The notes under the pieces are model-generated. The model was not told where the DNA came from. It did no database searches and saw nothing but the letters and a program-made list of their open reading frames with translations. From an uncultured Planctomycetaceae bacterium (GTDB lineage: Bacteria; Planctomycetota; Phycisphaerae; SM23-33), in the NCBI GenBank assembly GCA_964401835.1, contig CAYNZP010000009.1:18020-82019 (forward strand): a stretch of DNA of 64,000 nt. The letters are read 5' to 3'. A program made the position numbers and the translations under genes. Position 1 is the stretch's first letter. Every line of letters starts with the position of its first letter. This document shows positions 10,034 to 43,568 of this stretch, piece by piece.

Positions 10034-10356
10034 GATTTTAGGGGCATTTCATATTTAGAATTCAGCCAAGTTACTTAGAAAAACGAACAATATTTTATAG
10101 AAAGTGCCTTTTCTTAATTTAAAATCCGGCATAGAATTAAATTTGAAAATTAGATATTAGTCTAGCTAGCATTTGTCGTTTCGGAAAACTGCGATATTTT
10201 CTTGGGGACATGGCGATGCATAGGTGGACTCCCGCAATGGGAGTTCGCTGATGAATCCTGTCCCCAGGCTGTCGCAGGCCTTCCGGAAGGGTAGTAATTG
10301 GCGGCTCCCCTTCTTCATAAGGGGGCCATTCCTAAACAAACGCAGAAAGGGGTAAG

Positions 10357-10965: not shown

Positions 10966-11124
10966 ATTAGACGAAGAGTGCCATGAGCTTGAAATCATCT
11001 CCGGCCTTTGAGTAGCCGGATAATTATTGACAAAAATCCAAGAATGCTTGAAGATATAAAGCAATCTTCGACCAATTTTTCCCCTTTCTAATTGGGTGAT
11101 GATTTGTCATTCAGAAATGAACTC

Positions 11125-12030: not shown

Positions 12031-12176
12031 ATGACGTGACTGATAATCTTAAAATCTTAATCAAATAAAGCTTACAGTCAATAATTCAGTTTATAAATCT
12101 GCCCAATAACTTGATAACTTTAGCTGTTTACTTGATAATCAGGCAGATAATTAGCCAATCTCCTAAGGGGAAAACG

Positions 12177-12917
12177 ATGAGAAAATTAAGTTACCTGGGG
12201 CTTTTTCTAACTTTTCTAATCATTCCGTCCGTCATTTGGGCCATAGATGCTGAAAATAAGGCTATCCCAAAATTTGAAAAGTTAGATTTATCCGATTCAA
12301 CAGCTTATTCGATTACAAGAGTTGTTGACGGCGACACTATCATCGCCAACATTGACGGAAAAGACACAACCATCAGGCTTATAGGGGTTGATACGCCTGA
12401 AACCGTCCATCCAAGCAAGTCTGTTCAATATTACGGCAAAGAAGCATCTAACTTCACAAAGAATTTGCTACAAGGTGAAAAGGTCTATCTTGTCACTGAC
12501 CCCCAGCAAGGCAAGACTGACCGATATGGCCGAACACTTGCTTATGTCTATCGAGCACCTGGTGGTCTATTTGTAAATGCCGAGATTATTCGGCAAGGCT
12601 ATGGGCATGCGTATGGGCGGTATCCATTTAAGTATCTTGAAGAATTCAGGCGGTTGGAAAAGTTTTCAAGAGATGCTGAAAAGGGATTATGGGAAGTCCG
12701 GCAGATTACCAAATTTTCTTCAAAATCTCCCTTAATGCCAACAGTTGTTAAACCCAAATCAGACACAGACAATGTTACCGTCTATATAACACGAACAGGC
12801 AAGAAATATCACAGGGGGAGTTGCAGTTATCTTCGGAGAAGCAAAATTCCTAAAAATCTTAGTGACGCCAGAGCGGCTGGCTATGGGCCATGTAGTCGAT
12901 GTGGCCCTCCTAGATAA
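12177..12917 (+). CDS. Secreted thermonuclease (staphylococcal nuclease / SNase fold) with Cys-rich C-terminal tail
   Basis: Signal peptide. SNase motifs (VVDGDTI, IRLIGVDTPE, DRYGRTLAYVY). C-terminal CSYL...CSRCGPP. Start chosen at the RBS-supported ATG. Confidence 0.75.
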   Translation: MRKLSYLGLFLTFLIIPSVIWAIDAENKAIPKFEKLDLSDSTAYSITRVVDGDTIIANIDGKDTTIRLIGVDTPETVHPSKSVQYYGKEASNFTKNLLQGEKVYLVTDPQQGKTDRYGRTLAYVYRAPGGLFVNAEIIRQGYGHAYGRYPFKYLEEFRRLEKFSRDAEKGLWEVRQITKFSSKSPLMPTVVKPKSDTDNVTVYITRTGKKYHRGSCSYLRRSKIPKNLSDARAAGYGPCSRCGPPR

Positions 12918-12933
12918 TTAAAAGGGGAAGCAC

Positions 12934-13395
12934 ATGGCAAAGATAAAATATCAGAAATTAATCTTGGTGATGTTGATTGGGATGGGTCTTTCTAGTATCG
13001 CTTTTTCTCGACAACCCCGCAAAAGGCAAAAACCATGGTGGGAATCAATCCCATCAAGCCAAGTCAAGAAAATGGGGCTACATAAGCTTTCAACGAGAGA
13101 AAAAAATGAACTCTTGAATTTTTTTATGAGTGTCCTAAATGGCTCGGGGGATGTTGCGGCAAGAAAGTACCTTGAGCGTAAAGGCTGGGAAAAGATGACA
13201 GTAGCAAAAAAAGCCTCTTCGGGAAAATTGATTCTCATCGACGATATTGGAAGGCAGTATCTTGCGGAATCATACGTTGGTTTTTATGGAATCTTTAAAG
13301 GCGATTGTGTGTGGCTAGAAAGTACCTTTGGTTATACTGACATGATTACCCCAGACGGCGACACGGAAAACGCAAAAATTGAGACGTTGAATTGA
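12934..13395 (+). CDS. Hypothetical secreted protein
   Basis: Signal-peptide-like N-terminus. Co-directional with the nuclease, 16-bp spacing. Confidence 0.4.
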   Translation: MAKIKYQKLILVMLIGMGLSSIAFSRQPRKRQKPWWESIPSSQVKKMGLHKLSTREKNELLNFFMSVLNGSGDVAARKYLERKGWEKMTVAKKASSGKLILIDDIGRQYLAESYVGFYGIFKGDCVWLESTFGYTDMITPDGDTENAKIETLN

Positions 13396-13604
13396 AAACT
13401 ATACAAGGTTTTCTTTACTATAAACTGACCATTCTTAAATTTTCATCCAGTCACAAAGAGGGCTGGAATTGTTAAGAAATCGCAAAAGATGCTTGAAGAT
13501 ATAACGCTACTTTTGGTCGATTCTAAAAGCCTCTATGGTTTATACCTATCTTGGAGGTTTTACTTTTGTGATTCAACAAACAATAACCGCAATCATAATT
13601 TGAA

Positions 13605-14111
13605 TTATTGCCATCTAACCTCGGGACTTGTGATTCTCCAGTCATCTGGACGGATTGGTTCTATCAAACCGGGCCCGTGAACAACTTCATCTTGTATTAC
13701 AATTATCTGGTCAGTCCAATCTGCTTTTCGATAGGCTAGCTTGATTTGAAATGGCAAATTTGGAAGTGCTGCTTCTGTAGCATTTTCTTCAGACTCATTT
13801 TTCTTTAACCAGCGTTCAGCTTCAATAAAAACCTTTGCCTTAAATTTGCCTGGGGGTAAAGAACGCGGCAACTCTTCAATATTATCTTCAAATTTAAAAT
13901 AACCTCGCTCAGGTTTCCTAATGTTTGGCTGAGAATAATAGAATTCATTTCCTGCTTTTATCTGATAGTCCAATCTCGCATTTGAATGAGACACGTTTAA
14001 TTCGAGTTCAATTTCGATTTGCAGCAGCTTGCTTCCAAGCTTATTAAAAGAACCAAATTTTTTAGAAATGACCATATAGCTACATATTCCGTCTCTATTG
14101 TTTGTTTCCAT
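13605..14111 (-). CDS. Hypothetical protein (island)
   Basis: ORF only. Confidence 0.35.
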   Translation of the reverse strand: METNNRDGICSYMVISKKFGSFNKLGSKLLQIEIELELNVSHSNARLDYQIKAGNEFYYSQPNIRKPERGYFKFEDNIEELPRSLPPGKFKAKVFIEAERWLKKNESEENATEAALPNLPFQIKLAYRKADWTDQIIVIQDEVVHGPGLIEPIRPDDWRITSPEVRWQ

Positions 14112-14388
14112 AATCTGCCCCTTTCTTCCCTAAAAATGAAACAACACCTTTTTATTTTACCCTTAAAACAAAATTTTCAAAATTTAGGGGCATTGGCAAG
14201 CGCCCCAATTTGTATAATAGTGTATCTAGTTAAGGGCCAGTAAGTCAGTGAAACCCAAGAAAACCCTGCCCGGCTAGATTAAGGTATGCCAAGGCGTGGT
14301 AAGGTATGGTACGGTTTGGTATGGTTTGGTATGGAAAGCACGGCATGAAGCTTTAATAGATTCATGCCGTGCCTAATTACTGGTTTCT

Positions 14389-14917
14389 TTATGTTTCTAT
14401 TAAAATGTTGGAAATTTCTTCTGCCAGCATCTCCGCAATCTCCGCTACGGAACCTTCAAAGACTTCGCCATCGGCAGATTTACGAAACATAAACCGGCGA
14501 TTATTAGCCCCTTCATCAACCAGCGATACTTCTTCTACATCAATGTCGAAAATTTTCTTTTTTCGTTTAGCCATTAGCCACCTTCGCATTCCCAGCCATT
14601 GAAAATGAGTTTATTTTGCCTTTTTTAATCTTGGCCCAAAGGTCATCGTCCAAAACTTTGACTGTCATGTACCAAGCCCCGGCTGGAATGTAATCCCTGC
14701 CCTTGTAGGTATCCCGTTCAGCTTGAAAGGATTCAACAACCACTGCATCGGCACTTCCCGCATGTTGTTCGCCGAGATTGAAACCATTCTTGGCAAAACT
14801 TTCCATGGCTTTGAAAATTTCTTCCCTATCCGTCCAGTCTCCATCGGCATCGACAGTATTTGGTTCGTAGACGATTCCGCCGACCAATCTCTTATCTTGC
14901 GATTTTATAAAATCCAT
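14389..14917 (-). pseudogene. XkdF-like phage protein (DUF2213-like) split by a frameshift into 14567-14917 and 14389-14589
   Basis: N-part GIVYEPNTVDADGDWTDREEI and C-part VSLVDEGANNRRFM are both XkdF-family hallmarks. 23-nt overlap in different frames at an A/T homopolymer (KRKKK). Confidence 0.5.
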
Positions 14918-15003
14918 AGAACATCATCTCTAAGTCGGGCAACAACCGGCCAGCCATGTTTAGCTAGCGCTGGCCGGAGTTCCCATTATTTGAAGAATTT
15001 ATT

Positions 15004-15507
15004 TTAATAAGCTGAACGTGCGCCAGCCCAAGGAGCTTCCTGCAAGTCATGGCCTATAAATACTGCGCTGACCTTGCTTCCTACGCCGCTCGAATCATAC
15101 TGAACATTCACATAGCGGCTCACATTTTTGCAATTAACAACGTACATGCCGTCTTCTGTGATAGAACTAATCGTATTGCTGGAAACGGTGAGGTCAGAAA
15201 CTGAAGCGCCAAGTAAGCCTTGTGCGTACAAGTTTGAAGTATCGCTTGTCAGCACAATTTGAGCCGTGCCATCACTTGAAACGGCTGCTAAAGCTGTGCC
15301 AGACGTTGCAAAATCTGAAATCAAACTCGTCCAGACTTCGACATTGCGAACATCACTGCCAGCGGCATTGTCAACAACCAGAACAAGGGTTCCGTTCTGA
15401 GCGCTGCCAGCATCTATTTCACCAACCAGCAAGTCAGAACCAGCTGCGCCGGTTGCTGAATTGTTTTTCAAAAGTGCGAATCTACTTTCGGGAATAATAC
15501 CTTTCAC
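15004..15507 (-). CDS. Hypothetical phage structural protein (Ser/Thr/Ala-rich, possible decoration or Ig-like)
   Basis: Directly downstream of the capsid gene. Low-complexity beta-rich composition. Confidence 0.3.
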   Translation of the reverse strand: MKGIIPESRFALLKNNSATGAAGSDLLVGEIDAGSAQNGTLVLVVDNAAGSDVRNVEVWTSLISDFATSGTALAAVSSDGTAQIVLTSDTSNLYAQGLLGASVSDLTVSSNTISSITEDGMYVVNCKNVSRYVNVQYDSSGVGSKVSAVFIGHDLQEAPWAGARSAY

Positions 15508-15523
15508 TTTAAATCAACCTCCT

Positions 15524-16615
15524 TTAGCTTGTGCTAATTCCCTTAATGACAACGAACGATTCGGGATGTCTGAGCAAAATGCCGACGTGCTTAATCACCC
15601 TCAAATGAACTTGGTCACGATAAAACGCATCGTAACTGTGCATCGATGTTTCGATTCTCAGGCCACGATTTTCGCCGATAATGAAATCCCTCCAATTGCC
15701 ACAGACTATATAGGTTTCGTCTGCATCTGGCATGTTGGTAACAGCCATTTCATTTGTAATACCCAACGGCCTGCCGTAAAGCGTCCTTAAATCAATGGTC
15801 GAATACCTATTATCATTCTGGCTTCCAAGGATGTAATTGCCTTCAGCATCCTTCAGCTTTTCAAGCTGGTACTCGATAACAGGTGGTGCAATAAATCCGG
15901 TAAGCTTTGAGCTTGAAGTACGAAGTTGATAATTGGCTTCAAGAATATCATCAAAACCAATCCCTGAACCATTTAAGTCTGTGCTTTGAACTCTTGGGTT
16001 GTAGTAGATACCCAAAGGCTCAGTGCCTCCTGTGCCCTCCAAGAATACCCTGTCTTCCTCCAGTGCGATTTGGGCTGCCAGTTCTGCACGAATTACATCT
16101 TCCGCAGCATCGGCATTGTCCAAAAGTTCTCGACTCATCTTGTAGATGCAGGTCGCTTTGCTGACCTCTAAAACCTTTTTGCCGAAATCCATAGAGGTGT
16201 CTTCTGAAATGGTTGCATTTTCGCTACCCCAGGTGATTTGGGGGCCGTTTTCTACAGCAGCATATGAAAGTTTGGGGCCTTTCATGTTCACGGTGCGAAT
16301 ACCGGGCATTTTACGAATTACTGATTCGTCTTTTAAAAGCTCAATAACACCGCCGGCCAGTTGTTCAGGCACAAGAAACCCACCCTGTGCGCCACCATCT
16401 TGGCCAAAAGTTTTATAAATTCGCTTTTCGTTATCTGCTCCTTGCCAATCATTGAAAATTGCACCTTTTAGATATTTGGCGATGCTAACATTCGATTCTC
16501 CAACCTCGATATCGCCGAAACTTTTCCTTACCCCTCTTTCAGATTTGACTGAATTTTGAAGCCCCTTGGCAAACGCCTCGATAAATTCAGCCTTCTCTTT
16601 TTTCGTCATTTTCAA
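15524..16615 (-). CDS. Phage major capsid protein, HK97 family
   Basis: 363 aa. Pattern typical of TIGR01554 (GGFLVPEQ..., ...ELLDNADAAEDVIRAELAAQIALEEDRVFLEGTGG). Confidence 0.7.
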   Translation of the reverse strand: MKMTKKEKAEFIEAFAKGLQNSVKSERGVRKSFGDIEVGESNVSIAKYLKGAIFNDWQGADNEKRIYKTFGQDGGAQGGFLVPEQLAGGVIELLKDESVIRKMPGIRTVNMKGPKLSYAAVENGPQITWGSENATISEDTSMDFGKKVLEVSKATCIYKMSRELLDNADAAEDVIRAELAAQIALEEDRVFLEGTGGTEPLGIYYNPRVQSTDLNGSGIGFDDILEANYQLRTSSSKLTGFIAPPVIEYQLEKLKDAEGNYILGSQNDNRYSTIDLRTLYGRPLGITNEMAVTNMPDADETYIVCGNWRDFIIGENRGLRIETSMHSYDAFYRDQVHLRVIKHVGILLRHPESFVVIKGISTS

Positions 16616-16834
16616 ACTACATCAAAACTCCTTAAAATTATTGAAATATGGACATACCAATATTGGTTGAAATAAAACTACTGTTCACCGGCAGCTTTTA
16701 CGCTCCGTTATTAGAAATGGGCTCCTGTTACTTCTAGGCAGCCTTGAGAAATGCTTCCATCAGATGATTGGCAAGCGTGAGAGTTCCGCGAATGGGCAAC
16801 CCTCTACATATATATTATACTAAAGGCAGGAAAA

Positions 16835-17125
16835 CTAGCCCGCTCTTTTAAATTGAATGCCATTATCGCCCGGATATGGCTTTCTGTGGTCATGCTCCCC
16901 TGCAACAATTTCCAAGGGAATACCCTTCGGGAAGGCCTTGCAGATATTGCCCTCTATGAGGTGTTTACAATAATGACATTGCGGGAACCCGCCCATGACT
17001 TCTTCGATGAATTTTAGCTCTAATTCATTCCACGCTTTTATTTGTTCACTTGTTTGGCCATTTTCAGGAAAATCCTTTTGGGCTTCGTCTAGTGCTCTTG
17101 TTCTTTTCGACATAAGACTCTCCAC
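16835..17125 (-). CDS. Hypothetical protein (Cys/His-containing)
   Basis: ORF only. CHYCKH...C motif. Confidence 0.3.
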   Translation of the reverse strand: MESLMSKRTRALDEAQKDFPENGQTSEQIKAWNELELKFIEEVMGGFPQCHYCKHLIEGNICKAFPKGIPLEIVAGEHDHRKPYPGDNGIQFKRAG

Positions 17126-17244
17126 GAACTGGTTTTAAGCCATTTTTTCATTTCCAATACACCTTCAGGCATTTCCTTCATAATAATTGATTACAAGTAA
17201 TCCTCATTAATCCTAGCCATGTTGCAAAATGCTTCTTTGACAAG

Positions 17245-17850
17245 TTATTCATCATATAATCCTGATACACCATCCTTCATATCTTCAAAGGGAACATCGG
17301 CGTACATATTGGCCGTTGTAGCAGGCGAAGCATGGCCCAATTGCTTTTGAACTTGCCTAAGGTTTTTGGTTTTTCGTAATAGATGAACTGCCATAGTATG
17401 TCGAGCACAATGAATTGATAGGTCTTTTGGCAATCCTGCTCGTTTGATTTCAGCTTTCCATATTTGCTGAAGCCCCTGGGCGGTTAAAGGCCCGCGTTTC
17501 CCTATGAATAACGAACCTTTTTTATCAATAGATTCCCCTACGGTATCTTTCCATGCAATGAATTCTTTCAAATGCTCCAGAAGCTCAGGAGATATGGCAA
17601 GGGTTTCAGCTAATGGTTTTTTACGCTTTAATCTTCTTACCTTCAAAGCTCCTCGTTTCAAATCGACATCGCCAATCCTAAGATTTGCCATTTCTGAAAC
17701 ACGCAAACCAGTAGACAAAGCCAAATCCACAACCATCCAGCTCAATACGCCGGTTTTACGCCCCTGAGCTATATCTTTTAATGCTCTATGTTCGCTGAAC
17801 GTTCTTAACTGTCTGGCCTCCTCGATGCTCATGTATCGCTGCCTATCCAT
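17245..17850 (-). CDS. Tyrosine recombinase, catalytic-domain-only (201 aa)
   Basis: R...HCARHTMAVHLL...LGHASPATTANMY catalytic residues. Lacks an N-terminal core-binding domain. Confidence 0.75.
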   Translation of the reverse strand: MDRQRYMSIEEARQLRTFSEHRALKDIAQGRKTGVLSWMVVDLALSTGLRVSEMANLRIGDVDLKRGALKVRRLKRKKPLAETLAISPELLEHLKEFIAWKDTVGESIDKKGSLFIGKRGPLTAQGLQQIWKAEIKRAGLPKDLSIHCARHTMAVHLLRKTKNLRQVQKQLGHASPATTANMYADVPFEDMKDGVSGLYDE

Positions 17851-17961
17851 TTCTACACCCTCTATTCAATAGTTTATAGCAATCTTTCAATATATTATAA
17901 GCTATTTCTGGGGGTATAAAAGCGTGATTTTCAATATATTTATCTAATTTTATATTGAATA

Positions 17962-18696
17962 TCAATCCTCGAAATCCGTATGCCTAGTCCAGCCGGGGTC
18001 GGGGCCATCGCCGATACATTTAAAAGCTGAGCCTAAACGCTCAGACGGCAATTGCTTCGGCTGGATATCTGAAACAATAGGTAAATCCTCTGTTTCTTGG
18101 ATAGGCGTATGAATATCTGATTGCTCATTAGATTTGCTTTGCTCAATAGGCTCTTGGCTCTGCTTGTTATCTTCGCATGGCAAAGTAAAGCCGGGCTTGG
18201 TTACTATGGTAATGTTTCCCTCACCATCCAAGCCCTCAAACTTTTTTAAGTTCATTAGCAGTTGAGCCGCGCTGACGGGGGATTTTTTCAGCAAGTCCAA
18301 ACAAAATTTTTCGACCCCATGCCTCTTTAGGGCTCGATGAAAAGCAGAAAGAAGGCCTAAATCTTCGTCATCCCCCTCCCCTGAATCCACACATGTGTTC
18401 TCAGTGTTCTTTTTATGTCCTCTACCCGGCCCGCCTGGGAAGCCCTTGAGGAAGTGGCCTTTGGAGTCTTTATATTGGGAATAATCAATGTTATCAATAT
18501 TATCCGGAGGTTCAGGATTTACTTTAGTGTCTGAAATGAGTGGAAGATTATTATCAGTTTCCACATGCCCATCTAAATTTGATAAGTCAGATTGGTTTTG
18601 TACCTCTATTATATCAACATCATTTGAGCTATTTTTTTCACTATTAAGATATTCTATTTTTCTTTTGAGCCTTTGTTTCAAATTTCCATCAATCAC
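17962..18696 (-). CDS. Hypothetical acidic protein
   Basis: ORF only. Highly acidic, low complexity. Confidence 0.3.
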   Translation of the reverse strand: MIDGNLKQRLKRKIEYLNSEKNSSNDVDIIEVQNQSDLSNLDGHVETDNNLPLISDTKVNPEPPDNIDNIDYSQYKDSKGHFLKGFPGGPGRGHKKNTENTCVDSGEGDDEDLGLLSAFHRALKRHGVEKFCLDLLKKSPVSAAQLLMNLKKFEGLDGEGNITIVTKPGFTLPCEDNKQSQEPIEQSKSNEQSDIHTPIQETEDLPIVSDIQPKQLPSERLGSAFKCIGDGPDPGWTRHTDFED

Positions 18697-18853
18697 ATGA
18701 CATCAACTCCAAATATTTGAACAAATATTTACCGAATATTTACTTTACATCTTTGGGTTACTAGTTATTAGTTTTGACCAGTTTTTCCATATAACATTAC
18801 ATGAGGCATCTCTAAGAGCGTTAATGTGAAAACTACCCTTTAACTGGTAACCG

Positions 18854-21043
18854 TTAACCTTTCCTTTTCGCCTCACGCATCTTTTGAATTCTTGCTACGT
18901 CGTCATTCGCAAAATCAATGCCCAAATAAACCAATTTCGTTGTGCCATCGATTTTTACCCGGTCTCTATTAAAACCTAATTGACTAATTGCCCGCCCAAA
19001 GCTTGTGTAATTATCAAGCCATTGATACTTTGGAATCTGGTTATCCTTGCACCATTTTTTATAATGGCCCCTCAATTCAGCAGCAGGAATGCTATACCCT
19101 TCGCCTGTTATACATTTTTCGGACACGAACTCATTGAGAAGATTCTCTTCCTTGCGATATTCGTTTGTTGCGAACTTTACTTCCTCCGGCTCGGCAAGGC
19201 CCTCTTTTTGCCATGCAAGACAACCTTCCAATGCCCAATTAAGAATACCAGATAATTCGGCTTGTAGTTTTACTCCCAAGTGCCTATCACACTCTTCTTC
19301 AGATATTACGATATTAAACGGAATAAGCTTAATTCTATCCCAGATTGCGTGTGTATCTTCTTCAACCTTGGGCTTATTGTTCGTAATTAAGACAGTTTTG
19401 TTTGTCCTTTCGAACTGGAAATAATCCTGTCGCATAAATCGAGCTTTAATAAACTTGTCTCCCGTCAGATTCTTGACAAGTTGTACTCGCATCTTGCCGT
19501 TACGCTCAGTTTCTGAAGCTATTATCAATCGCTTACCCATAAGGTCGGCCAGTTCTGTTGGATGCTCGTTGTATTTTCGCACGCTTAATAGATTAGGCGG
19601 CGCATAACCAGCATATTCCCCCATCATAGTCAATATGGTATCCAAAAAGGTATTCTTGCCATTGCGTCCTTCGCCAAAAAAAATTGGCAGAATTTGCTCG
19701 CTCACATCACCAGTCAACCATGTGCCGGTAAGTTTCTGAAGATATCGAATTAGGTTTTCGTTATTACCCAATACACGCTTGAGGAACTTATCAAATAAAG
19801 GACACTTCGCTTCCGAATCGTATTGAGCTGGCGCCATTTTAGTTATCAAATCTTCCTTCCTGTGCTCTTGAAATTCTCCTGTCTTCAAATTTAATGTTCC
19901 GTTTTGACAATTAAAAAGGAAAATATCTTTATCTAAATCTTCGGGCGAAACGACTAAAGCTTGATTGTCCTTTGCCATACCAACAGCAGCTCTAACTCTT
20001 TCTCGACTTAAACTTTTCTCAATATGTTTACCCAATGCTTTACAGACAGCAGAATCGGTAGATGTTTTAGCTTCATCGTAAATATCTTTGATTGCCTGAA
20101 TCATTAGAGAGTTTACAGAATCAGTTAGGTCTGGAGCCCAGTATTGACCGTTCCACAGATACCATTTGCCCTGTTGTGGACAATATTTCACCTCGTTGCC
20201 ATGCTTCTTTGCGAATCTCAGTGCATTTCCTTCATCTGTCAGAGAGAACTGGTCCGGTAAAATTGTGCCCTCTGTGGTTCGCATCACGACAGAAGTCTCA
20301 GTCGAATGCTGGTAGCCCATGGCGCTTTGAACAATTTTTATAATCTCCTCTTCCGACAAAGGAGGCACACACCGTTTATTTTCAGAAATGATAGCGACGT
20401 ATACCGATTCAGAAGTCAAGCCAAGTTTAGCCATTTTACAGGCCTTGCTGAAAAGGAAGTCATTTCTTTTGCCCTCCGGAATTGCTTCGTCTGATTGGTT
20501 GACAACTGGAGAATTTTTCTTTTTTAATTTCTCCAACAACCAAGACGGAGCCTCTGCAATTTCAACATCCTCGGGACTACAATTTTTTGCCCATTTGTAG
20601 CGAGTTCCTGAACTGTGTAAACTTGGTGGAACAATAACACTCCCACCTTCGCCTTTAATATCTAAACCTTCGCCTAACCCACCATTATTACAACGGATTT
20701 CTTGGTTTTCTGGATACCGAAAAAAGATATGGCAACCACCGCCGCCTGTTTCCGCCATTACCGTCTCCGGTAATGGTTCGAATTCAGATTCTAGCATTTC
20801 AAGAGATTCATAGCCGCCCGGTTGATAATCAACATCGAGAACAAATATTCCGCTCTCTTTTCCCGTTGCAATTGCAATGTTCTCATCGGCAAATCCGTTA
20901 TTCCACCAGTTTCGAATTTGCGTCTCATCTGTCGTTGCGTCTTTAAACCCATGCTTCGTTAAAGGTATTTTATCCCCACGTTTGACAGGAAAAACATGAA
21001 AACCCTTTTGGGCGTATTTCAATGCCCTATCCAAATTTTGCAT
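18854..21043 (-). CDS. Bifunctional PrimPol-domain / D5_N-P4-type primase-helicase
   Basis: N-terminal bifunctional primase-polymerase domain (HVFPV...KDATTD...VLDVDY). C-terminal P4/D5 helicase Walker A (GEGRNGKNT). Confidence 0.8.
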   Translation of the reverse strand: MQNLDRALKYAQKGFHVFPVKRGDKIPLTKHGFKDATTDETQIRNWWNNGFADENIAIATGKESGIFVLDVDYQPGGYESLEMLESEFEPLPETVMAETGGGGCHIFFRYPENQEIRCNNGGLGEGLDIKGEGGSVIVPPSLHSSGTRYKWAKNCSPEDVEIAEAPSWLLEKLKKKNSPVVNQSDEAIPEGKRNDFLFSKACKMAKLGLTSESVYVAIISENKRCVPPLSEEEIIKIVQSAMGYQHSTETSVVMRTTEGTILPDQFSLTDEGNALRFAKKHGNEVKYCPQQGKWYLWNGQYWAPDLTDSVNSLMIQAIKDIYDEAKTSTDSAVCKALGKHIEKSLSRERVRAAVGMAKDNQALVVSPEDLDKDIFLFNCQNGTLNLKTGEFQEHRKEDLITKMAPAQYDSEAKCPLFDKFLKRVLGNNENLIRYLQKLTGTWLTGDVSEQILPIFFGEGRNGKNTFLDTILTMMGEYAGYAPPNLLSVRKYNEHPTELADLMGKRLIIASETERNGKMRVQLVKNLTGDKFIKARFMRQDYFQFERTNKTVLITNNKPKVEEDTHAIWDRIKLIPFNIVISEEECDRHLGVKLQAELSGILNWALEGCLAWQKEGLAEPEEVKFATNEYRKEENLLNEFVSEKCITGEGYSIPAAELRGHYKKWCKDNQIPKYQWLDNYTSFGRAISQLGFNRDRVKIDGTTKLVYLGIDFANDDVARIQKMREAKRKG

Positions 21044-21107
21044 CTTACATCACTACTCCTATTTTTAGCCTAATCTTCAAAAAAGGATGCGAAAAGGAAC
21101 GACAGGA

Positions 21108-21398
21108 TTAGGCTGCCGTTCCTTCCCCTGCTCCCGCAGAGCTGCGCAGGCCAGCGCCGCTGCATTTTTTAAACATGGTTACGACCGCCGTAACCTGATA
21201 AGTATTCCAAAGAAATTTCCCATTGATTTGCTTGCAATATCCGCCCGCAAAACTTCCACGAGTGGGAAAACCTCGGTCATACAACAGTCGGTATTTTTTC
21301 AGAATTCCCCGAAGTTCAAGGGGAGTTAATCCGTTTTTTCTTGCGATTCGATTAAGCCTATTGAAAACAATTTCGTTTTGCTCGTTTTGCTCATTCAT
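21108..21398 (-). CDS. Hypothetical small protein (island replication/regulatory operon)
   Basis: ORF in tight array with the primase. Confidence 0.3.
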   Translation of the reverse strand: MNEQNEQNEIVFNRLNRIARKNGLTPLELRGILKKYRLLYDRGFPTRGSFAGGYCKQINGKFLWNTYQVTAVVTMFKKCSGAGLRSSAGAGEGTAA

Positions 21399-21717
21399 CT
21401 AACTCACCCCAAATTTGTTGAAGAATATCAGGGTGTGGCAGCATCGTATATTCACCAGAAAAGGGGTCAAAAAACTCAAAGCCGATTTCTGGGCCATCCT
21501 CTTTAATGAGTAATCGAATCCATCCTGATTCGAACGCCCGTTCTAGGTTCTCCATGAACTTTTCTAGGCCAAGATTAAAATCACCGTAATATTTATGTTT
21601 GATTAAGCCAGTAGCTAAATCCGCTATCATTGCTTGAAATGCCGAATGCAACTCTGGGTCCGACTTTTCGAGCTCAGTCAACGTGTACGGCAATGGATTG
21701 GGATATATCAACTTCAT
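21391..21717 (-). CDS. Hypothetical protein
   Basis: ORF, overlapping neighbours. Confidence 0.3.
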   Translation of the reverse strand: MKLIYPNPLPYTLTELEKSDPELHSAFQAMIADLATGLIKHKYYGDFNLGLEKFMENLERAFESGWIRLLIKEDGPEIGFEFFDPFSGEYTMLPHPDILQQIWGELDE

Positions 21718-21731
21718 TGCAACCTCCTTTA

Positions 21732-21968
21732 TTAATCCTCAACTTTTTCAAATAATCGGTCTATTTCTCTGCCTTTGTTACAATCTCTTTCCCAAAGTTC
21801 TTTTGAAATCCTGAAAGGCGGCGACCCCGGTTTATATTTTTTGCTTTTTTCGGGATAATGATTTCTTCCGCTATACGATTGTCCTGTAACGCTGTCTCGC
21901 CAATATCGCCCGGGGCGAAGTTGAACGAGGACGCCCGATTCGATATTCGATAATTTCGATGTTGTCAT
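21732..21968 (-). CDS. Hypothetical protein
   Basis: ORF. 1-nt overlap with the upstream gene. Confidence 0.3.
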   Translation of the reverse strand: MTTSKLSNIESGVLVQLRPGRYWRDSVTGQSYSGRNHYPEKSKKYKPGSPPFRISKELWERDCNKGREIDRLFEKVED

Positions 21969-22582
21969 TATTTAACCTCCGATTTTGTTTTGAATGATTT
22001 GATAAAATTCCGAAGTTCTTCTGCATTGATAGACAAGAATGGGTTTGAGCTAAATGCCAAAAAAGCAGAGGCCTTACGCATTATCGCTCTGCCTTCACGA
22101 TGGAGTTGTTCGGCTTTTTCTGCTGATGCCAATGCAGATTCGAGAGCTTCTATTGCTTTTTGAGCTTCAGCTTTTTGCTTTTGGGATAATTGTTCGAGTT
22201 TCTGAACCGAGTGCCATGAAGAATAGGACTTTTCGAGATAATTCGCCCATGCTTTGATTGCCGCACGAGCATCATATTTTGAATTCTCTCTGCTTTCCAG
22301 ATATTCAAATAAGGCGATCTCCTCCAGTGTTTTTGGCCTTCGCCCGCCCGTGGGATGGGTTTTGCCCCATTGGTCAAGTGATTTGCGCCGGGCTTCGGCC
22401 GCTACGATTCGCAAAGTTTCTTCTCGATCAACATCTGCGTTGATCGCGTCACATTCTTGGCACGTTCCCAGAAGTGCGGCCCGCCGCGAATCCCCCTTGG
22501 TAAGTTCCTTAAATCCCTCTGGTTTGCCTTCTAAATATTTGTCTTCTAGTGCTTTAAACTGATTCTCGTAATTATCTTGCAT
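21968..22582 (-). CDS. Hypothetical protein
   Basis: First gene of the leftward operon, diverging from the recombinase across an AT-rich spacer. Confidence 0.35.
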   Translation of the reverse strand: MQDNYENQFKALEDKYLEGKPEGFKELTKGDSRRAALLGTCQECDAINADVDREETLRIVAAEARRKSLDQWGKTHPTGGRRPKTLEEIALFEYLESRENSKYDARAAIKAWANYLEKSYSSWHSVQKLEQLSQKQKAEAQKAIEALESALASAEKAEQLHREGRAIMRKASAFLAFSSNPFLSINAEELRNFIKSFKTKSEVK

Positions 22583-22965
22583 TCACAAATCACTTCCTTA
22601 ATTATCTTATAAACATCTATATTTTCAGGGTTTGAAACCCATCCTCCTATTTTAATATTGTACTAAACGTTTCAAATTTTCGAACCAAACCTGCTCCTAC
22701 ATTAATTCATAACTTTCCTTCATTAATATAATTACACCAATACTTTTGTTTTTAGCTCATTTTTTCCAGATTTTTCTGGCCAAACATCAATTTAAGAGCC
22801 AGAAAAAACTCTTGCATTAATATATTATACTGAAACGAACATTCCTCGTGACAAGAAAATTTTCATGTTTTAACATCTTTTAATACAAGCTTTTATATCT
22901 TTTTAGTCACTATTGTTGTTCAAATACTATTTGCTTGAGTATTTGCTTTTCTATATAATACAAAT

Positions 22966-25080
22966 ATGACTAAAGCATTTTTAATGACAAGAGTAAGTAC
23001 CGAAGCGCAAGCCGACGTTGGCGAAGGCCACAGTGCCCAGTTACATGCCTGCCAAACCATCGCAAAAAGTAACGGCTTTTCAAACACTGAACATGTTTCG
23101 GAAACGATTTCTGGATTCACCGAAAATATTGATGACCGCCCGAAGTTGGCAAAAGTTTTAAATGAGGCTCAAGCAGGCGACATTCTCATCTGGGACAAGT
23201 CCGACCGTATTGCCAGAGACAAAAAAGCGAAAGAATCAATTCTTGATGAAATGGCAAAAAAAAGGCTTCGCTGTATTGTTGGCGGAACAGAATATGATTT
23301 AACCAATGAAGAACACCGCTTAATTTTAACGCTATTCGGGGGCTTCGATCATTACATGGGCCGAGCCCTTGTAGCTCGTATGAAATCCGGTAAAGAAGCA
23401 CGCCAACGCAAGGGTGGAATCATTTACACTAACGCCCCTTTCGGATTGACGTATCAGCCTCCCAAAGACTCGAAAAATTGGGAAGAGCGAACCTTTGTAA
23501 TTAATCCCACCGAAGGCAAAATCGTAAAAAAGATTTTCGAAAAATATCTATCAGGTTGGTCACAAGAAAAAATAGCTGATTGGCTTAACCAACAAAATAT
23601 AACCACAAGGCGTGGTCGAAGGTGGACGGGCCATAAAATTAGCAATTTGTTGAAGAATCCCATGATAGCTGGACGGGTTTATGCCAATCTTTATAGCTAT
23701 GCCCCCGGCACTCGAAGCCGAAAAATGAATCCCCAAAGGGATTGGCAATTCGTCAAATACATAGGCGAGATAGTTCCGTGGTCAGACTTTGGACGAGTGC
23801 AACAAAGATTAGAGCGCAATCTCCCACCGCATCGTCGAAACTCGGGCGATACATCCAAACAGAAAAAAGGACGAACTGCGAAAGACAGATATTTTCTTGC
23901 AGACCGCTTAAGCTGTGGAAAATGTAATGGCAAAATGGGATTGATGGGCGGAACGAAAAAACCGGACGGCGAATACGTCCGTTATTACAAATGCTCGTGG
24001 AGCAGGAGTACCCGTCGAACTCGGGTACAAGGGAAGGATTGGTGCGAATCATCGGGAATTTTTGCCGACCACGCTGAATTTCTTATTTGGCACTTTGTCC
24101 GTAAGGTCTTTTTGAATCCGAAAGGTTTTTTCAGCGATATACTAAAAGGTAACCCCGCAAAGGCCGAACTAATAAATGCAAAGCAGGAACTACAGGGTTT
24201 TGAAAGTAGGCTTGATACAGTAAATTCAAAAATCGAAAAAGCTATCGACATGCTTCTCGAAACTGAAAAAGGCTCTGCTCGTGAAGACACTTTAAATGCT
24301 CAACTTAAGAAACTCGAAAAAGACCGCGATTCAATTAAAGAACAAATCGCTCGGCAGTCCGGTATTGTTGTGGGGATTGAACAGTTTGCAAATCAGTTAG
24401 ATTTTGTGAAAGACAATAAAGAAGCATTGAATGGAATCCAAGTTGTAGCAAGGCGAGTTATCGATGATTTAAATTACGAGCAACGAAAAGAATTAGTTAA
24501 TGCCGTACTGGGAAATTTAACATTCAAAGTTGAAACAATCAGTAAAGAAGAATGGAAAACTTACCGAAAATGCCCTAGTGGGCAATTTGGAAAGGACTTA
24601 TACGTTATTTTAAGGGGCGTTGAGAGAATTCCTACTGAACCGCCGAAAACGAGGTTAGAGGCAATAGAACAGACGGTCTACGAAAGTAGTTTATCCGACC
24701 TGCATAAAATTCCATCCGTAGGCTGTGCCTTCAACCCTAGGGCAAAAGCACGTGGACAGGCCTTTAAACTTGTTCCGCAAGGCCGATACAATGTTCGCAA
24801 CGCTTTAAGAGATATGGCGAGATTTGCAAAAAGCCTCAAGCCCCGTATCTACAAAAAATACAGAGACTTAGATTCAACTAAAAATAATAATACTGATAGA
24901 AGACGGCTGCGTTACGATACCGCGCGTCCACAGTACGCTAAAGTTCCCGGCCCGGCTGATGCTGGTAGCTGCCATGAACCCCTGCCCATGCGGCTACTTC
25001 ACCGACCCCAAAAAGCCGTGCAAATGCTCGCCGAACCAGGTCCAGCGTTACCTGTCGCGCATTTCCGGGCCGTTGATTGA
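22966..25080 (+). CDS. Large serine recombinase (resolvase/invertase N-domain); 3' end reads through the island/chromosome junction
   Basis: TRVSTEAQ catalytic serine motif, recombinase domain, Cys-containing zinc-ribbon-like region, coiled coil. The last ~60 codons lie in high-GC host DNA. Confidence 0.8.
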   Translation: MTKAFLMTRVSTEAQADVGEGHSAQLHACQTIAKSNGFSNTEHVSETISGFTENIDDRPKLAKVLNEAQAGDILIWDKSDRIARDKKAKESILDEMAKKRLRCIVGGTEYDLTNEEHRLILTLFGGFDHYMGRALVARMKSGKEARQRKGGIIYTNAPFGLTYQPPKDSKNWEERTFVINPTEGKIVKKIFEKYLSGWSQEKIADWLNQQNITTRRGRRWTGHKISNLLKNPMIAGRVYANLYSYAPGTRSRKMNPQRDWQFVKYIGEIVPWSDFGRVQQRLERNLPPHRRNSGDTSKQKKGRTAKDRYFLADRLSCGKCNGKMGLMGGTKKPDGEYVRYYKCSWSRSTRRTRVQGKDWCESSGIFADHAEFLIWHFVRKVFLNPKGFFSDILKGNPAKAELINAKQELQGFESRLDTVNSKIEKAIDMLLETEKGSAREDTLNAQLKKLEKDRDSIKEQIARQSGIVVGIEQFANQLDFVKDNKEALNGIQVVARRVIDDLNYEQRKELVNAVLGNLTFKVETISKEEWKTYRKCPSGQFGKDLYVILRGVERIPTEPPKTRLEAIEQTVYESSLSDLHKIPSVGCAFNPRAKARGQAFKLVPQGRYNVRNALRDMARFAKSLKPRIYKKYRDLDSTKNNNTDRRRLRYDTARPQYAKVPGPADAGSCHEPLPMRLLHRPQKAVQMLAEPGPALPVAHFRAVD

Positions 25081-37247: not shown

Positions 37248-37718
37248 TTATTCGTTTGTGGCATCCGAGGTGTTAACGCGTTCGGAAGCTTCGTAAAGGA
37301 CCTCTCCATAGGTCGGCAAAGCTTCCTCTACATGGCGTTCCCAATCCTCACTAGGCCAAAGTTCAATATGGTCGTAAATGCCGACCAGAGTAACTCGCTT
37401 GTCGATGACCGCCCGCTGCATCGATTTTTCCGGCAGGACGACCCTGCCCTGTGAATCCGACTTGACCAGACGCGCCATCGCAAAAAGCAAATCTATCTTC
37501 CGCGTCTGCCTGTCGGGGAGCGGGCTTCGCTTCAACGTCGCCAAAAGGCGGCGATAGTACTTATCCGGATAAAGCCATAAGTGACGGTCCGGGCCCAAGA
37601 CTAAAACGAAGTTATCTCCGTCTTCGTTTGGCTCGATCTGTTCGCGAAGTGAAGCATTGATCGCCAGCCTGTGCTTGGCGTCAATCGTCGCTTCAAATTC
37701 CCCGATCAAAAGTGCCAT
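37248..37718 (-). CDS. mraZ: Transcriptional regulator MraZ
   Basis: Duplicated MraZ motifs (IDAKHRLAI; DSQGRVVLP). Confidence 0.85.
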   Translation of the reverse strand: MALLIGEFEATIDAKHRLAINASLREQIEPNEDGDNFVLVLGPDRHLWLYPDKYYRRLLATLKRSPLPDRQTRKIDLLFAMARLVKSDSQGRVVLPEKSMQRAVIDKRVTLVGIYDHIELWPSEDWERHVEEALPTYGEVLYEASERVNTSDATNE

Positions 37719-38000
37719 TCGGTGGTCCTTTCCGCCATTCAATGGGACAACAAGGGAAATTAAACCACCAATAGGGAAATCTGCAAGGAAATAATTTAAA
37801 AACCATAGGAAAACTTTATGTGATTAGACGCCGTAACCACTTGTCAGGTCATAAATTGAGTTCTAGAAACATAGTGGACACCATATGTTGTGGTTATGAG
37901 CAGTCCTGAGGAGATATGAAATTTCGGTTTTTTTCGAGAATTCGCCCTGCTCGGATGATCGGCAAGGTGGCTTTATTAACTTTAGGCTGATTTTTAAAAC

Positions 38001-41173: not shown

Positions 41174-41521
41174 TCAAAGATCTTCTGCTTCAGATTTACG
41201 AATTTCAGCCTCAATTCTATTCTTACGGTCCCAGATAATAATGTACGTTGTCAAACGTATATGTGCCCAAAGCTTCATTACTGCGACATTAACAATTCCT
41301 ACAATACCCAAAAATAATCCAATAGCATGTTGCTTTAAATTATCGTCAGGGGCATTAAAGATAATGTTTAGCCCCCAAAGCGTAATAAATACGGACAACG
41401 ATAGAAAAATCCAATATGTTATTTCTGTTTTCCGAACTTTCTTTAGAATATCATCACATGTTGGAGTTTCTTTAAAGCTCTCTGCCCAGTTAAATAATCT
41501 CATAGTAAATCTCCCATTCAT
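41174..41521 (-). CDS. Small 3-TM membrane protein
   Basis: Overlaps the upstream HTH gene by ATGA. AT-rich patch. Confidence 0.4.
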   Translation of the reverse strand: MNGRFTMRLFNWAESFKETPTCDDILKKVRKTEITYWIFLSLSVFITLWGLNIIFNAPDDNLKQHAIGLFLGIVGIVNVAVMKLWAHIRLTTYIIIWDRKNRIEAEIRKSEAEDL

Positions 41522-41811
41522 TTGTCGCTTTGTTCAAAAGCCTTGATTAATGTTTTGGCTATTGAAAGATCTAGTTTTCCTTCGACTACCAGCAATTTGA
41601 TTTTTCGATGAAACGATGTTTTCGGTTTCTTAGAATCAAGGATTTTCACTTTCTCAATAAGGCGATTCAGCCTAATTCGGACCGTGGGATAAGAAATGCC
41701 ATATTGTCGAGCAATCTCCTTAAGTGATCCAGAGGCCAGCAACAGTCGTTTAATAAACTGCCAGTCCTCTTCGCCTAAGCCTCTAACCCATTCTGGAATT
41801 TCAGAATCCAT
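41518..41811 (-). CDS. DUF2089-like HTH protein
   Basis: EIARQYGISYPTVRIRLNRL resembles the DUF2089 C-terminal HTH. Confidence 0.5.
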   Translation of the reverse strand: MDSEIPEWVRGLGEEDWQFIKRLLLASGSLKEIARQYGISYPTVRIRLNRLIEKVKILDSKKPKTSFHRKIKLLVVEGKLDLSIAKTLIKAFEQSDK

Positions 41812-42143
41812 AAAATGTTCCTTTTTTGTACTTTAATATTATTAAGATACACATTAATAATGTTAAAGACAAGGAAAAGTTCAAATTTCTTAGTATATAG
41901 AAAAAGGCGATCAAATTGAAAGGTAGGCTGGGGTGCTCCCCCTCCCCAGAAAATCCAAAAAATTCTTCTCATGGCCCGGCCGGGGTTTAGGCCGGGGGAA
42001 TCCATTTTTTATTACCGCATTGCGCGGGAAGTGCCGGCTTGGGCGGGTATATATGGAAGGACTATGCTTTCCGTTGTTTTCGTTTTTTGACAATTTAATA
42101 GGCGACATTTAACTCAAATACTTATTCAGCCATTACTTAAGCC

Positions 42144-42286
42144 ATTTAAAAACTTGGCAGTTTTGGGCAGAATTGGGCACATTTGGGCAGAACTGGGCAG
42201 AATTGGGCAGTTTTGGGCAGAACTGGGCAGTTTTGGGCAGATTTGGGCAGTTTCGGGCAGCTTTCGGCAAACAGAGGCAGGCTCGA
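42144..42286 (+). repeat. About 14 tandem copies of a 10-bp unit (NNNTGGGCAG), perfectly phased
   Basis: Visible directly in the sequence as a GGCAG recurrence every 10 nt. Located 100-240 nt upstream of the 42387 gene. Confidence 0.9.
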
Positions 42287-42386
42287 ACCAAAAGTTACAT
42301 TCGATAATTACTGCTTGTTAGCCGGCGAGGCTTTTGCTATCTTTCCGCCTTCTGCTTAACTATTAGAACAAACAGGAGAAACACTC

Positions 42387-43568
42387 GTGAACGAACAACT
42401 CGCTTACGCCCTGATAACACCATATAGCCTCTACAAAAGCCGAACCGGCGGCATCATCGGCCGGCTCCTCTCACACGCCCAGCTCGAACTCGTGGACGTC
42501 CGCATGTTCGTCTTCAGCGATGCCTTTGTAGATGCCTACAAGAAAGTCGTATGTCCGGAAGGCATGGACCCTGCCATTGCAGAAGCGTGGCATAAGTATC
42601 TGGACCTGTCGCTGCGTCAGGACAACAGATGGGGCCGTGTGCCCCGCTGCATGCTGCTGCTGCTTCGCGGCCAAGACGCCGTTCGCCACCTCAAAGACGA
42701 GGTCGTCGGCGGCTTTACTGATCAGCTTGTTGGCGACACTATCCGCGGCACTTATGGAGACTTCATTCGTGATGAAGACGGCAAGGTTCACTACTTCGAG
42801 CCGGCTGTCATTACCTGCCCCGATGTGAAATTGAACAACGAGCATCTGAAACTCTTTGCCGAATACGCCACAACCGACGGCGGCGTCCTCACCGACCGCG
42901 TCAAGTACGATGAAGGCAAGCCGGAAGTATCGCTGGTAATGCTCAAGCCCGACAATTTCTACCGTGCAAGCCGCCGGCCGGGAAATATTATCGACACGTT
43001 CAGCTGGACCGGCCTGAAGATCGTCGGAGCCAAGCTTTTCAATATGACCGTCGCACAGGGCGAAGAATTCTACGGCCCGCTGAAGAGCCTCTTCGTCGAC
43101 AAGCTCAAATTCAAGGTAGCCAACGAAGTTTATGAGCGGCTGAGCGACGCGTTTGACTTCGAGTTCAACGCCGACGACGCCGACGTACTGGCCCAGAAGC
43201 TGGCTGAGCGAAACGCGATTACCGAGTTCAACAAGATCGTCGAATTCATGACCGGAGTCAGCCCCGACGAAATTACCGATCCGCAGGAAAAGAAAACCGC
43301 CAGCAAGACTACATGCCTGGCGCTACTTTACGAGGGGCCGGACGCGATTGAAAAGATCCGCACCGTTCTGGGTTCGACCGATCCGACAAAGGCAGAGCCT
43401 GGCACGGTTCGTAGCGACTTCGGCCGCGACCTGATGCGTAACGGTGCTCACGCTTCGGACTCGACGGAAAACGCAATGCGTGAAAGAAAGATCGTCGGCC
43501 TGGCGAAAACCGAAAAAGACACCTGCCGTTTTGCCGAGATTATCGGGGAGTACATCGATAAGAAGTAA
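42387..43568 (+). CDS. Nucleoside-diphosphate-kinase-like protein with duplicated NDK fold
   Basis: Second domain has KPD and NGAHASDS (catalytic-His region) NDK motifs. First domain is degenerate. Confidence 0.5.
   Translation: MNEQLAYALITPYSLYKSRTGGIIGRLLSHAQLELVDVRMFVFSDAFVDAYKKVVCPEGMDPAIAEAWHKYLDLSLRQDNRWGRVPRCMLLLLRGQDAVRHLKDEVVGGFTDQLVGDTIRGTYGDFIRDEDGKVHYFEPAVITCPDVKLNNEHLKLFAEYATTDGGVLTDRVKYDEGKPEVSLVMLKPDNFYRASRRPGNIIDTFSWTGLKIVGAKLFNMTVAQGEEFYGPLKSLFVDKLKFKVANEVYERLSDAFDFEFNADDADVLAQKLAERNAITEFNKIVEFMTGVSPDEITDPQEKKTASKTTCLALLYEGPDAIEKIRTVLGSTDPTKAEPGTVRSDFGRDLMRNGAHASDSTENAMRERKIVGLAKTEKDTCRFAEIIGEYIDKK

Follow-up and report, generated by a model that had tools for sequence, protein, structure and literature searches.

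A lineage-specific 10-bp tandem array upstream of a double-NDK operon in Phycisphaerae, tentatively read as a bent minisatellite

The stretch analyzed here, 64,000 nucleotides of contig CAYNZP010000009.1 (hereafter the window, to which all coordinates refer), comes from a free-living, marine-type Phycisphaerae population and harbors a tandem array of thirteen 10-bp units upstream of a double-NDK gene (NDK2). The reading that we favor, tentatively and well short of conviction, is that this array is a lineage-specific minisatellite born of slippage that exerts at most a static bend. Replication slippage or unequal exchange would have multiplied a unit composed of an A/T-rich tetranucleotide and GGGCAG, in part by copying 30-bp blocks of three units, just 5′ of the conserved σ70-type promoter of the double-NDK gene, and the resulting 13-unit tract would at present be stable, not hypermutable. 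The physical consequence held to be certain under this model would be a strong intrinsic bend or superhelical writhe, predicted at about −200 to −70, and any effect on the NDK operon would come from static curvature altering upstream wrapping or contacts at the promoter, with no dedicated regulator involved. The elements on which the argument turns are as follows.

42151..42280, + strand: 10-bp tandem array, 13 head-to-tail units, 130 bp
42164..42247, + strand: nine consecutive TGGG boxes in exact 10-bp register (TGGGC-AGNNN = TGGGN-N5)
42315..42343, + strand: predicted σ70-type extended −10 promoter of the double-NDK operon, based on conservation in orthologues
42315-42320, + strand: −35 element TTGTTA of this promoter, followed by a 17-nt spacer ending in TGc (TG at 42335-42336)
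42338-42343, + strand: −10 element TATCTT of this promoter
42387..43568, + strand: double-NDK gene, 393 aa, PF00334, first gene of a conserved block

Inspection of the sequence together with Tandem Repeats Finder (TRF; period 10, 11.4 copies, 78% matches) bore out a preliminary description of this DNA in that the array is real, phased and situated 5′ of the double-NDK gene, whereas the count of about 14 copies over about 140 bp given there has to be replaced by 13 units over 130 bp. The units run in the order AACTTGGCAG TTTTGGGCAG AATTGGGCAC ATTTGGGCAG AACTGGGCAG AATTGGGCAG TTTTGGGCAG (units 1-7) and AACTGGGCAG TTTTGGGCAG ATTTGGGCAG TTTCGGGCAG CTTTCGGCAA ACAGAGGCAG (units 8-13). Units 2-11 are well formed and follow the pattern WWWY-GGGCAG (W, A or T; Y, C or T), and units 1, 12, and 13 are degenerate. 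Counted by register, GGCA is found in 13/13 units, GGCAG in 11/13 and TGGGCAG in 8/13. Across units 2-11, columns 5-9 are invariant, column 10 exhibits one change and the remaining variation lies in columns 1-4; the restriction of variation to three positions, as had been proposed, is nearly accurate for this interior and breaks down in the degenerate units. Likewise, the placement of every TGGGCAG on one face of the helix is approximate only, since at 10.5 bp per turn the boxes drift by about −17 degrees per unit, which amounts to −51 degrees over four boxes and to about −206 degrees over all 13.

The array is unique within the window. TGGGCAG occurs there at 18 sites, 8 of which are inside the array, and the 10 sites outside, against ~8.4 expected, represent no enrichment. 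Pairs of the form GGCAG-N5-GGCAG (at most one mismatch) were found 22 times against an expectation of 4.15 ± 1.83, with 12 of these in the array. Runs of at least three phased TGGG boxes, of which 0.01 would be expected per window, were observed once, and this sole run is the array with its nine boxes.

The longest exact repeat within the array is 19 bp, and because the units are imperfect and any k above 19 resolves the tract, its assembly is reliable and a collapsed longer satellite is unlikely. The JGI (Joint Genome Institute) contig Ga0118727_1000035 (213 kb) matches the window and spans the array, and short-read contigs of the same population in the European Nucleotide Archive (ENA) end inside the array, their pieces overlapping with the same unit order and number. 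With these independent JGI and ENA assemblies in agreement, the array is not an assembly artefact, and the longer satellite considered in the preliminary description is unlikely. Five short-read contigs end in or beside the 575-bp intergenic region that holds the array, namely at the array start, inside the array or at a GC-rich hairpin.

Loci concerned at the 575-bp intergenic region: window position 42053 (L006); contig ends in L001, L003, L004, L005

This intergenic region is hard for assemblers, and variants near contig ends need read-level confirmation; one further single-base difference sits 4 bp from a contig end. Along its 6,751 bp, the variant contig L003 is identical to the window save for positions 42193 and 42231, which both lie in spacer columns of the array. 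Under random placement over the 6,751 bp, the probability that both single-nucleotide polymorphisms (SNPs) fall in the array is about 3e-4, with the caveat that both are within 75 bp of the contig end. Their joint location inside the array fits a fast-evolving repeat. A search for further population haplotypes by means of the small open reading frame (ORF) beside the array returned only the source contig.

In the 1.5 kb 5′ of NDK2, the array was absent from all 41 orthologous loci scanned, in which the promoter and the downstream synteny are conserved, and phased boxes were lacking over the whole available length of the locus in 31/31 Phycisphaerae NDK2 loci searched. This absence from relatives, which the preliminary description had considered as a possible outcome, led us to reject the array as a conserved feature of the NDK2 promoter. 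Phased TGGGCAG loci elsewhere comprised 83 metagenomic matches, of which 80 were analyzed, and 7 viral matches; these are mostly perfect minisatellites with one fixed spacer, on contigs ranging from 24 to 74% GC, several of them eukaryote-like. None of the 80 metagenomic and 7 viral arrays is located near NDK2, mraZ or DUF2089, the family of a helix-turn-helix (HTH) gene that adjoins our array. Composition-matched scrambled cores were as frequent, with 4 and 16 viral matches against 7 for TGGGCAG, and TGGGCAG arrays as such are not a family. On one metagenomic contig of 61% GC (L075, 8950-9250), TTGGGCAGAYT words occur at mixed 10-/11-bp spacing amid further repeat families and coding sequence of low complexity (GGC/GGA), and this contig is probably eukaryotic.

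A sample of 291 kb of Phycisphaerae DNA yielded roughly one short-unit array of at least four copies per 25 kb. The window itself contains a second intergenic array at 14280-14335, consisting of TGGTW at period 5, which can also be read at period 10 as ~5 TAAGGTATGG-like copies; a perfect hairpin, GCACGGCATGAA...TTCATGCCGTGC, comes after it. Additionally, several NDK2 orthologues (among the loci L007-L037) carry tandem duplications of two to three copies just 5′ of or over the −35 element, such as 16 bp ×2.3 in L008 and 9 bp ×3.4 in L012, with others in L014, L018, L024, L027, and L030, and the region upstream of the NDK2 promoter may be duplication-prone. Together, the general frequency of short-unit arrays in the clade, the second array and the orthologue duplications support a minisatellite, as do the absence of the array at the 41 NDK2 loci and near all DUF2089 homologues examined and the ordinary minisatellite character of TGGGCAG arrays elsewhere, which have neither a common context nor an excess over controls. 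TRF also detected a higher-order period of 30 (2.9 copies, 91% matches) in the array, which indicates the duplication of blocks.

The double-NDK protein has its nearest relatives in Phycisphaerae metagenome-assembled genomes (~75% identity), and the block formed by NDK2 and the genes for a metallo-beta-lactamase-fold (MBL-fold) protein and an FHA-GAF histidine kinase is conserved across the class. The upstream regions of the NDK2 orthologues share CTTGTx, 17 nt, TGnTATC(C/T)T and then an ACAGGAG ribosome-binding site, with this promoter pattern located ~45-55 nt before the start codon. Judging from this conserved pattern, the double-NDK start site would be near 42350, which would put the array at about −200 to −70, upstream of the predicted promoter and outside the 5′ untranslated region (5′UTR) and any ORF. 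The array ends ~35 bp 5′ of the predicted −35 element, and its last exact TGGG box is ~70 bp 5′ of it.

The array is predicted to be strongly bent because T4, A2T2, and AT3 tracts alternate in it with GGGCAG once per 10 bp. In a Bolshoy-type dinucleotide wedge model, its ratio of end-to-end distance to contour length was 0.75-0.76 (window median 0.965; shuffles 0.966 ± 0.021), and in an AA-only wedge model it was 0.81-0.83 (window median 0.975; shuffles 0.982 ± 0.013). Both models rank the array as the second most curved locus of the window, and it is this relative ranking only that should be trusted; the AA-only model served as a cross-check. The predicted curvature counts in favor of the minisatellite reading. 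The most curved predicted DNA of the window is the 380-bp AT-rich intergenic region at 22600-22965, between the divergent genes 21968-22582 (−) and 22966-25080 (+). With curved DNA built on phased A/T tracts the array shares the tracts recurring once per 10 bp between G/C-rich segments and the position at about −70 to −200; it differs in that its 10.0-bp period would produce a superhelical rather than a planar path, and in that its curvature is a predicted one. Classical curved DNA upstream of promoters comprises 3-6 tracts that are not exact tandem repeats and has no invariant 6-bp core.

Several observations weigh against a mere minisatellite. A minimum spanning tree connecting the eight interior unit types (from units 2-11 and the two variant units) requires 7 steps, 6 of them in columns 1-4 and 1 in the six core columns (P = 0.019 uncorrected for this bias of core versus spacer, ~0.19 when the choice of register is allowed for), and the G/C-rich core would be expected to be the more mutable part of the unit. 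The spacer changes in the array are mostly A<->T, and the spacer stays A/T-rich. This pattern hints at constraint on the core and on the A/T-richness of the spacer, but it is not decisive. As far as sequence goes, the conserved core and the 10-bp period coincide with the layout of the boxes recognized by MraZ. Unit number is equal in the two population haplotypes, which are two substitutions and zero units apart, in a comparison that covers two haplotypes and several assemblies and is a small sample. Finally, the 13-unit array is the largest short-unit array in the 291-kb clade sample.

The coincidence with MraZ boxes gives rise to the rival that survives best, which we consider possible but, on the whole, unlikely. 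According to it, the 9-11 head-to-tail TGGGN-N5 boxes would be bound cooperatively by MraZ, the candidate ligand, with one subunit per box in an extended open-ring or filament-like complex, and the array would do one or both of two things: titrate MraZ away from the promoter of the dcw (division and cell wall) cluster, and couple the NDK operon to this regulator. That cooperative binding of a regulator suits the geometry of the array had already been suggested, and as a reading this remains legitimate, given that the layout equals that of MraZ operators (TGGG, a 6-nt partly A/T gap and a 10-bp period). The relevant features of the window are the following.

37248..37718, − strand: mraZ, 156 aa, PF02381, 4.4 kb from the array
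37743..37787, + strand: clade-conserved mraZ operator/promoter block
37743, 37753, 37765-37768, and 37773, + strand: boxes of this block in 10-bp register, namely TGGGAC, AGGGAA, inverted GTGG, and AGGGAA
37782-37787, − strand: −35 element CTTGCA of mraZ

MraZ sites have been described as direct repeats of 10-bp period, each formed by GTG(G/T) and 6 spacer nt, on which one subunit occupies each major-groove box, binding is cooperative and concatenated boxes support fibre-like assemblies (PMC12957436). In B. subtilis, three GTGG[A/T]G boxes are separated by 4-nt spacers, and the triple repeat is found only at the mra promoter (bioRxiv 10.1101/2022.02.09.479790); in Mollicutes, AAAGTG[T/G] repeats are unique to the mraZ promoter (PMC8475190). 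Read directly, the sequence just 5′ of mraZ in E. coli K-12 is GTGGGAAATT GTGGGGCAAA GTGGGAATAA, with three GTGGG boxes on the sense strand between promoter and start codon. In the clade, the mraZ block was invariant in five Phycisphaerae genomes (the window and the loci L168, L169, L171, and L173, whose MraZ proteins are 75-80% identical). On the strand opposite mraZ, registers 0, 1, and 3 hold the boxes (A/G)TGGGA, AGGGAA, and AGGGAA, register 2 holds a GTGG in inverted orientation, and the spacers in between are A/T-rich. The block and the promoter, a CTTGCx −35 with an extended −10 element, overlap, and in the four relatives the block is located ~30-75 bp 5′ of mraZ. A scan for at least three of four phased [AT]GGGA boxes recovered exactly four mraZ operators in 236 kb and nothing else (0 expected).

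Compared with these operators, the array likewise consists of head-to-tail repeats at an exact 10-bp period, with a G-rich box of 4-7 bp and an A/T-rich spacer, and its 13 units, nine with TGGG, exceed the minimum of three direct repeats at 10-bp period seen in MraZ operators. Its box, (T/C)TGGGC, has TGGG in common with the E. coli GTGGG[A/G] and the proximal (A/G)TGGGA of the clade. The same window encodes an MraZ that keeps the three base-contacting residues of the solved MraZ-DNA complex, with K13, R15, and R86 of M. genitalium corresponding to K15, R17, and the R of DSQGR. The MraZ reading is further favored by the published direct repeats of 10-bp period, by the TGGGN-N5 layout in E. coli K-12 and by the phased boxes with A/T-rich spacers in the clade's own operators, as well as by the status of the array as the window's only run of at least three phased TGGG boxes and by its conserved core with a variable yet A/T-rich spacer.

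The differences are nevertheless substantial. The base after GGG is A in 15/15 operator boxes of the five Phycisphaerae genomes, where GGGA is invariant, and C in every unit of the array, whose boxes also carry T or C where canonical GTGG has its leading G. There are 9-13 boxes rather than 3-4, and the array is not at the mraZ/dcw promoter but 4.4 kb away, 5′ of the unrelated NDK2 operon. Such a site would have no precedent, because the multi-box site of B. subtilis and of M. genitalium occurs only at the mraZ promoter. Since none of the 31 Phycisphaerae NDK2 loci has phased boxes and no other phased set exists in the 236 kb, any role of MraZ at the array would be a novelty of one lineage, and no TGGGCAG array elsewhere adjoins an mraZ gene. 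Given that the array ends ~35 bp, and its last exact TGGG ~70 bp, 5′ of the −35 element, it could not occlude the promoter. In addition, the match rests on a 4-nt core noticed post hoc, and by our estimate a random 10-bp unit holds TGGG on either strand ~8% of the time.

The fullest form of this proposal appears slightly more doubtful still. By analogy with the published assemblies, the array would be a natural MraZ super-operator on which the ring opens and polymerizes into a helical nucleoprotein fibre over the 9-11 boxes. It would then be three times longer than any MraZ site described and lie away from the dcw promoter, which we consider similarly unlikely. It could serve as a sink that sets free MraZ and dcw expression, or as a link between NDK nucleotide supply and cell division, neither of which we would rate any higher. 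Helical MraZ nucleoprotein fibres have so far been reported only in vitro, on concatenated boxes.

A phased platform 5′ of the NDK operon promoter, through which some other reader of direct repeats (a winged-helix response regulator of the OmpR/PhoB type or a nucleoid-associated protein) would activate or silence transcription, is improbable. OmpR/PhoB-family sites combine a 6-7-bp core with a 3-4-bp A/T spacer, head-to-tail at about one helical turn 5′ of a promoter, and nucleoid proteins preferentially target bent DNA with phased A/T tracts. By analogy, the layout of the array matches the former architecture and its predicted bend would suit the latter, while the location at −200 to −70 suits an upstream element and the variation of core versus spacer fits as well. 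Against this, the NDK2 operon and the vicinity of the array contain no gene for a response regulator or DNA-binding protein except the DUF2089 HTH, TGGGCAG shows no enrichment outside the array (10 versus ~8.4), and the array is not conserved in relatives. Under the favored reading, the minisatellite would probably have no specific ligand and would affect transcription, if at all, through its bend.

We consider it very improbable that the array is a contingency locus, in which slippage would add or remove 10-bp units and thereby turn the NDK operon on and off or adjust its expression. Contingency loci and other variable-number tandem repeats (VNTRs) are exemplified by the tetra- and heptanucleotide tracts 5′ of adhesin genes in Neisseria and Haemophilus. 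The array resembles them as a lineage-specific short-unit repeat beside a promoter, as the only polymorphic spot in 6.7 kb and as a place where short-read assemblies break. It departs from them in that its units are imperfect (78% by TRF, longest exact repeat 19 bp), which lowers slippage, and in that it belongs to a free-living member of the Phycisphaerae rather than a host-adapted pathogen. The tract lies outside the −35/−10 spacer, the 5′UTR and any ORF, and unit changes would have little geometric effect because a 10-bp step roughly keeps the helical phase. Phase variation is not supported, as the two haplotypes share their unit number and differ by two spacer SNPs only. The suggestion in the preliminary description of a slippage-prone contingency locus therefore finds no backing in these data.

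Still less credible is a G-quadruplex or other non-B structure, in which the ten GGG runs, 7 nt apart, would fold on the non-template strand and modulate transcription or replication. The array does contain the only canonical G3-N1-7 ×4 motifs on the searched + strand of the window; however, all loops are at the upper limit of 7 nt, the G4Hunter maximum of 1.04 falls short of the 1.2 threshold and below other places in the window, and the tract, 5′ of the promoter, is not known to be transcribed. As an RNA element the array was likewise rejected: it folds no better than shuffles (z = −0.61), it has no Rfam match at the gathering threshold and chance-level matches only at E up to 10, and the predicted start site is 3′ of it. 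A search for tRNA and tmRNA genes found none.

The remaining candidates, an operator of the adjoining DUF2089 regulator, a replication origin, an iteron set or a partition centromere, have just as little in their favor. The following features 5′ of the array bear on them.

41174-41521: 115-aa membrane-like ORF paired with the DUF2089 HTH gene
41518..41811, − strand: DUF2089 HTH gene, 97 aa, divergent from the double-NDK gene
41831..41868: AT-rich inverted repeat CTTTAATATTATTAA / TTAATAATGTTAAAG, overlapping the predicted DUF2089 promoter
41866-41838: DUF2089 promoter candidate, TTAACA-17-AATAAT
41957..42010: GC-rich hairpin CCCGGCC-N8-GGCCGGG (41975-41996) with A-run and T-run flanks, between the HTH promoter and the array

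Both the adjacency to this HTH cassette and the flip of gene orientation at ~42 kb could be taken to favor an operator or an origin, and short direct-repeat arrays are typical of iterons and parC-type centromeres. The DUF2089 pair is conserved in the clade (72-82% identity across the 120 best of 1,289 matches) and sits in a different neighborhood in every relative examined, hence its location beside NDK2 is lineage-specific. In 4/4 relatives (L132, L135, L136, and L139; HTH 78-80% identical), 2-4 copies of a CTTTAATAATATTAAAG-like palindrome occur within ~110 bp of the DUF2089 start codon, and GGGCAG repeats are absent from the 700 bp upstream (0-1 GGGCAG/CTGCCC hexamers). On the basis of this comparison, the AT-rich palindrome, which in the window lies ~290 bp from the array, is likely the autoregulatory operator of this clade-wide, uncharacterized regulator. 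The array as a DUF2089 operator was rejected because the homologues in these four upstream regions share the palindromes and not the GGGCAG repeats, and a link between the array and the adjoining HTH/membrane cassette is not supported. A view of the HTH pair as an acquired low-GC cassette was dropped too, the pair being clade-conserved and AT-rich in relatives as well.

Despite the orientation flip, an origin of replication was rejected on two grounds. Per-gene GC skew is accounted for with a single replichore term (−0.044), and the fit does not improve when an origin is placed at 42 kb (coefficient 0.004); a search of the 575-bp intergenic region for sites resembling DnaA boxes, allowing two mismatches, found none. 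ParR/parC type II partition sites, the heptads of omega proteins and iterons are contiguous short direct-repeat arrays, and the array shares with them about ten contiguous units, a conserved core and a form suited to cooperative superhelical coating; it differs in its setting among chromosomal housekeeping genes, where genes for Rep, a partition NTPase or an adaptor are lacking. The neighborhood contains no rep gene and none resembling parA, parM or tubZ, and no plasmid match was found. The iteron-like role proposed in the preliminary description, like that of an origin, is contradicted by the lack of rep or par genes, DnaA boxes and any skew switch. A mobile element or miniature inverted-repeat transposable element (MITE) was rejected for want of terminal inverted repeats and of plasmid similarity. 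Three further ideas were dropped by eye: a σ54 promoter (GG-N10-GC) within the array, whose spacing is off by one; −35-like hexamers inside the units, which no −10 element follows; and a Rho-utilization site on the C-rich strand, as nothing transcribes that strand into the array.

The GC-rich hairpin at 41957-42010 looks like a bidirectional intrinsic terminator, to judge from its stem and flanks, and is located between divergent promoters, where a terminator is unexpected; the folding z-score of the region 5′ of the array that includes it was not significant. It could mark where a gene once ended, or terminate a small transcript. The neighbors of the array comprise NDK, an MBL-fold hydrolase, an FHA-GAF kinase, gyrA, the DUF2089 pair, GH130, and DeoC. 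Farther away, the 14 kb at ~10000-24000 have a GC content of 39-43%, against 50-53% in the rest of the window, and the strongest negative GC skew, and could represent a genomic island or a gene cluster of different composition.

If the array is only a minisatellite, its value would be modest: it would offer a clean example, from an uncultured Phycisphaerae lineage, of a stable repeat 5′ of a conserved promoter that is predicted to be strongly bent, together with the caution that phased repeats beside a regulator gene need not belong to that regulator. The by-products of the analysis are the operator layout of Phycisphaerae mraZ, a likely operator palindrome of DUF2089 and a conserved extended −10 promoter of the double-NDK gene. 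Should the less probable reading of the array as a target of MraZ prove true, it would be the first multi-box MraZ site outside the dcw promoter and a natural substrate for the filament-like complexes of MraZ with DNA that cryo-electron microscopy recently revealed. It would then provide a handle on MraZ targets beyond its own operon and on the behavior of an oligomeric ring on long DNA, and would be of real interest for dcw regulation and the oligomeric mechanics of MraZ.

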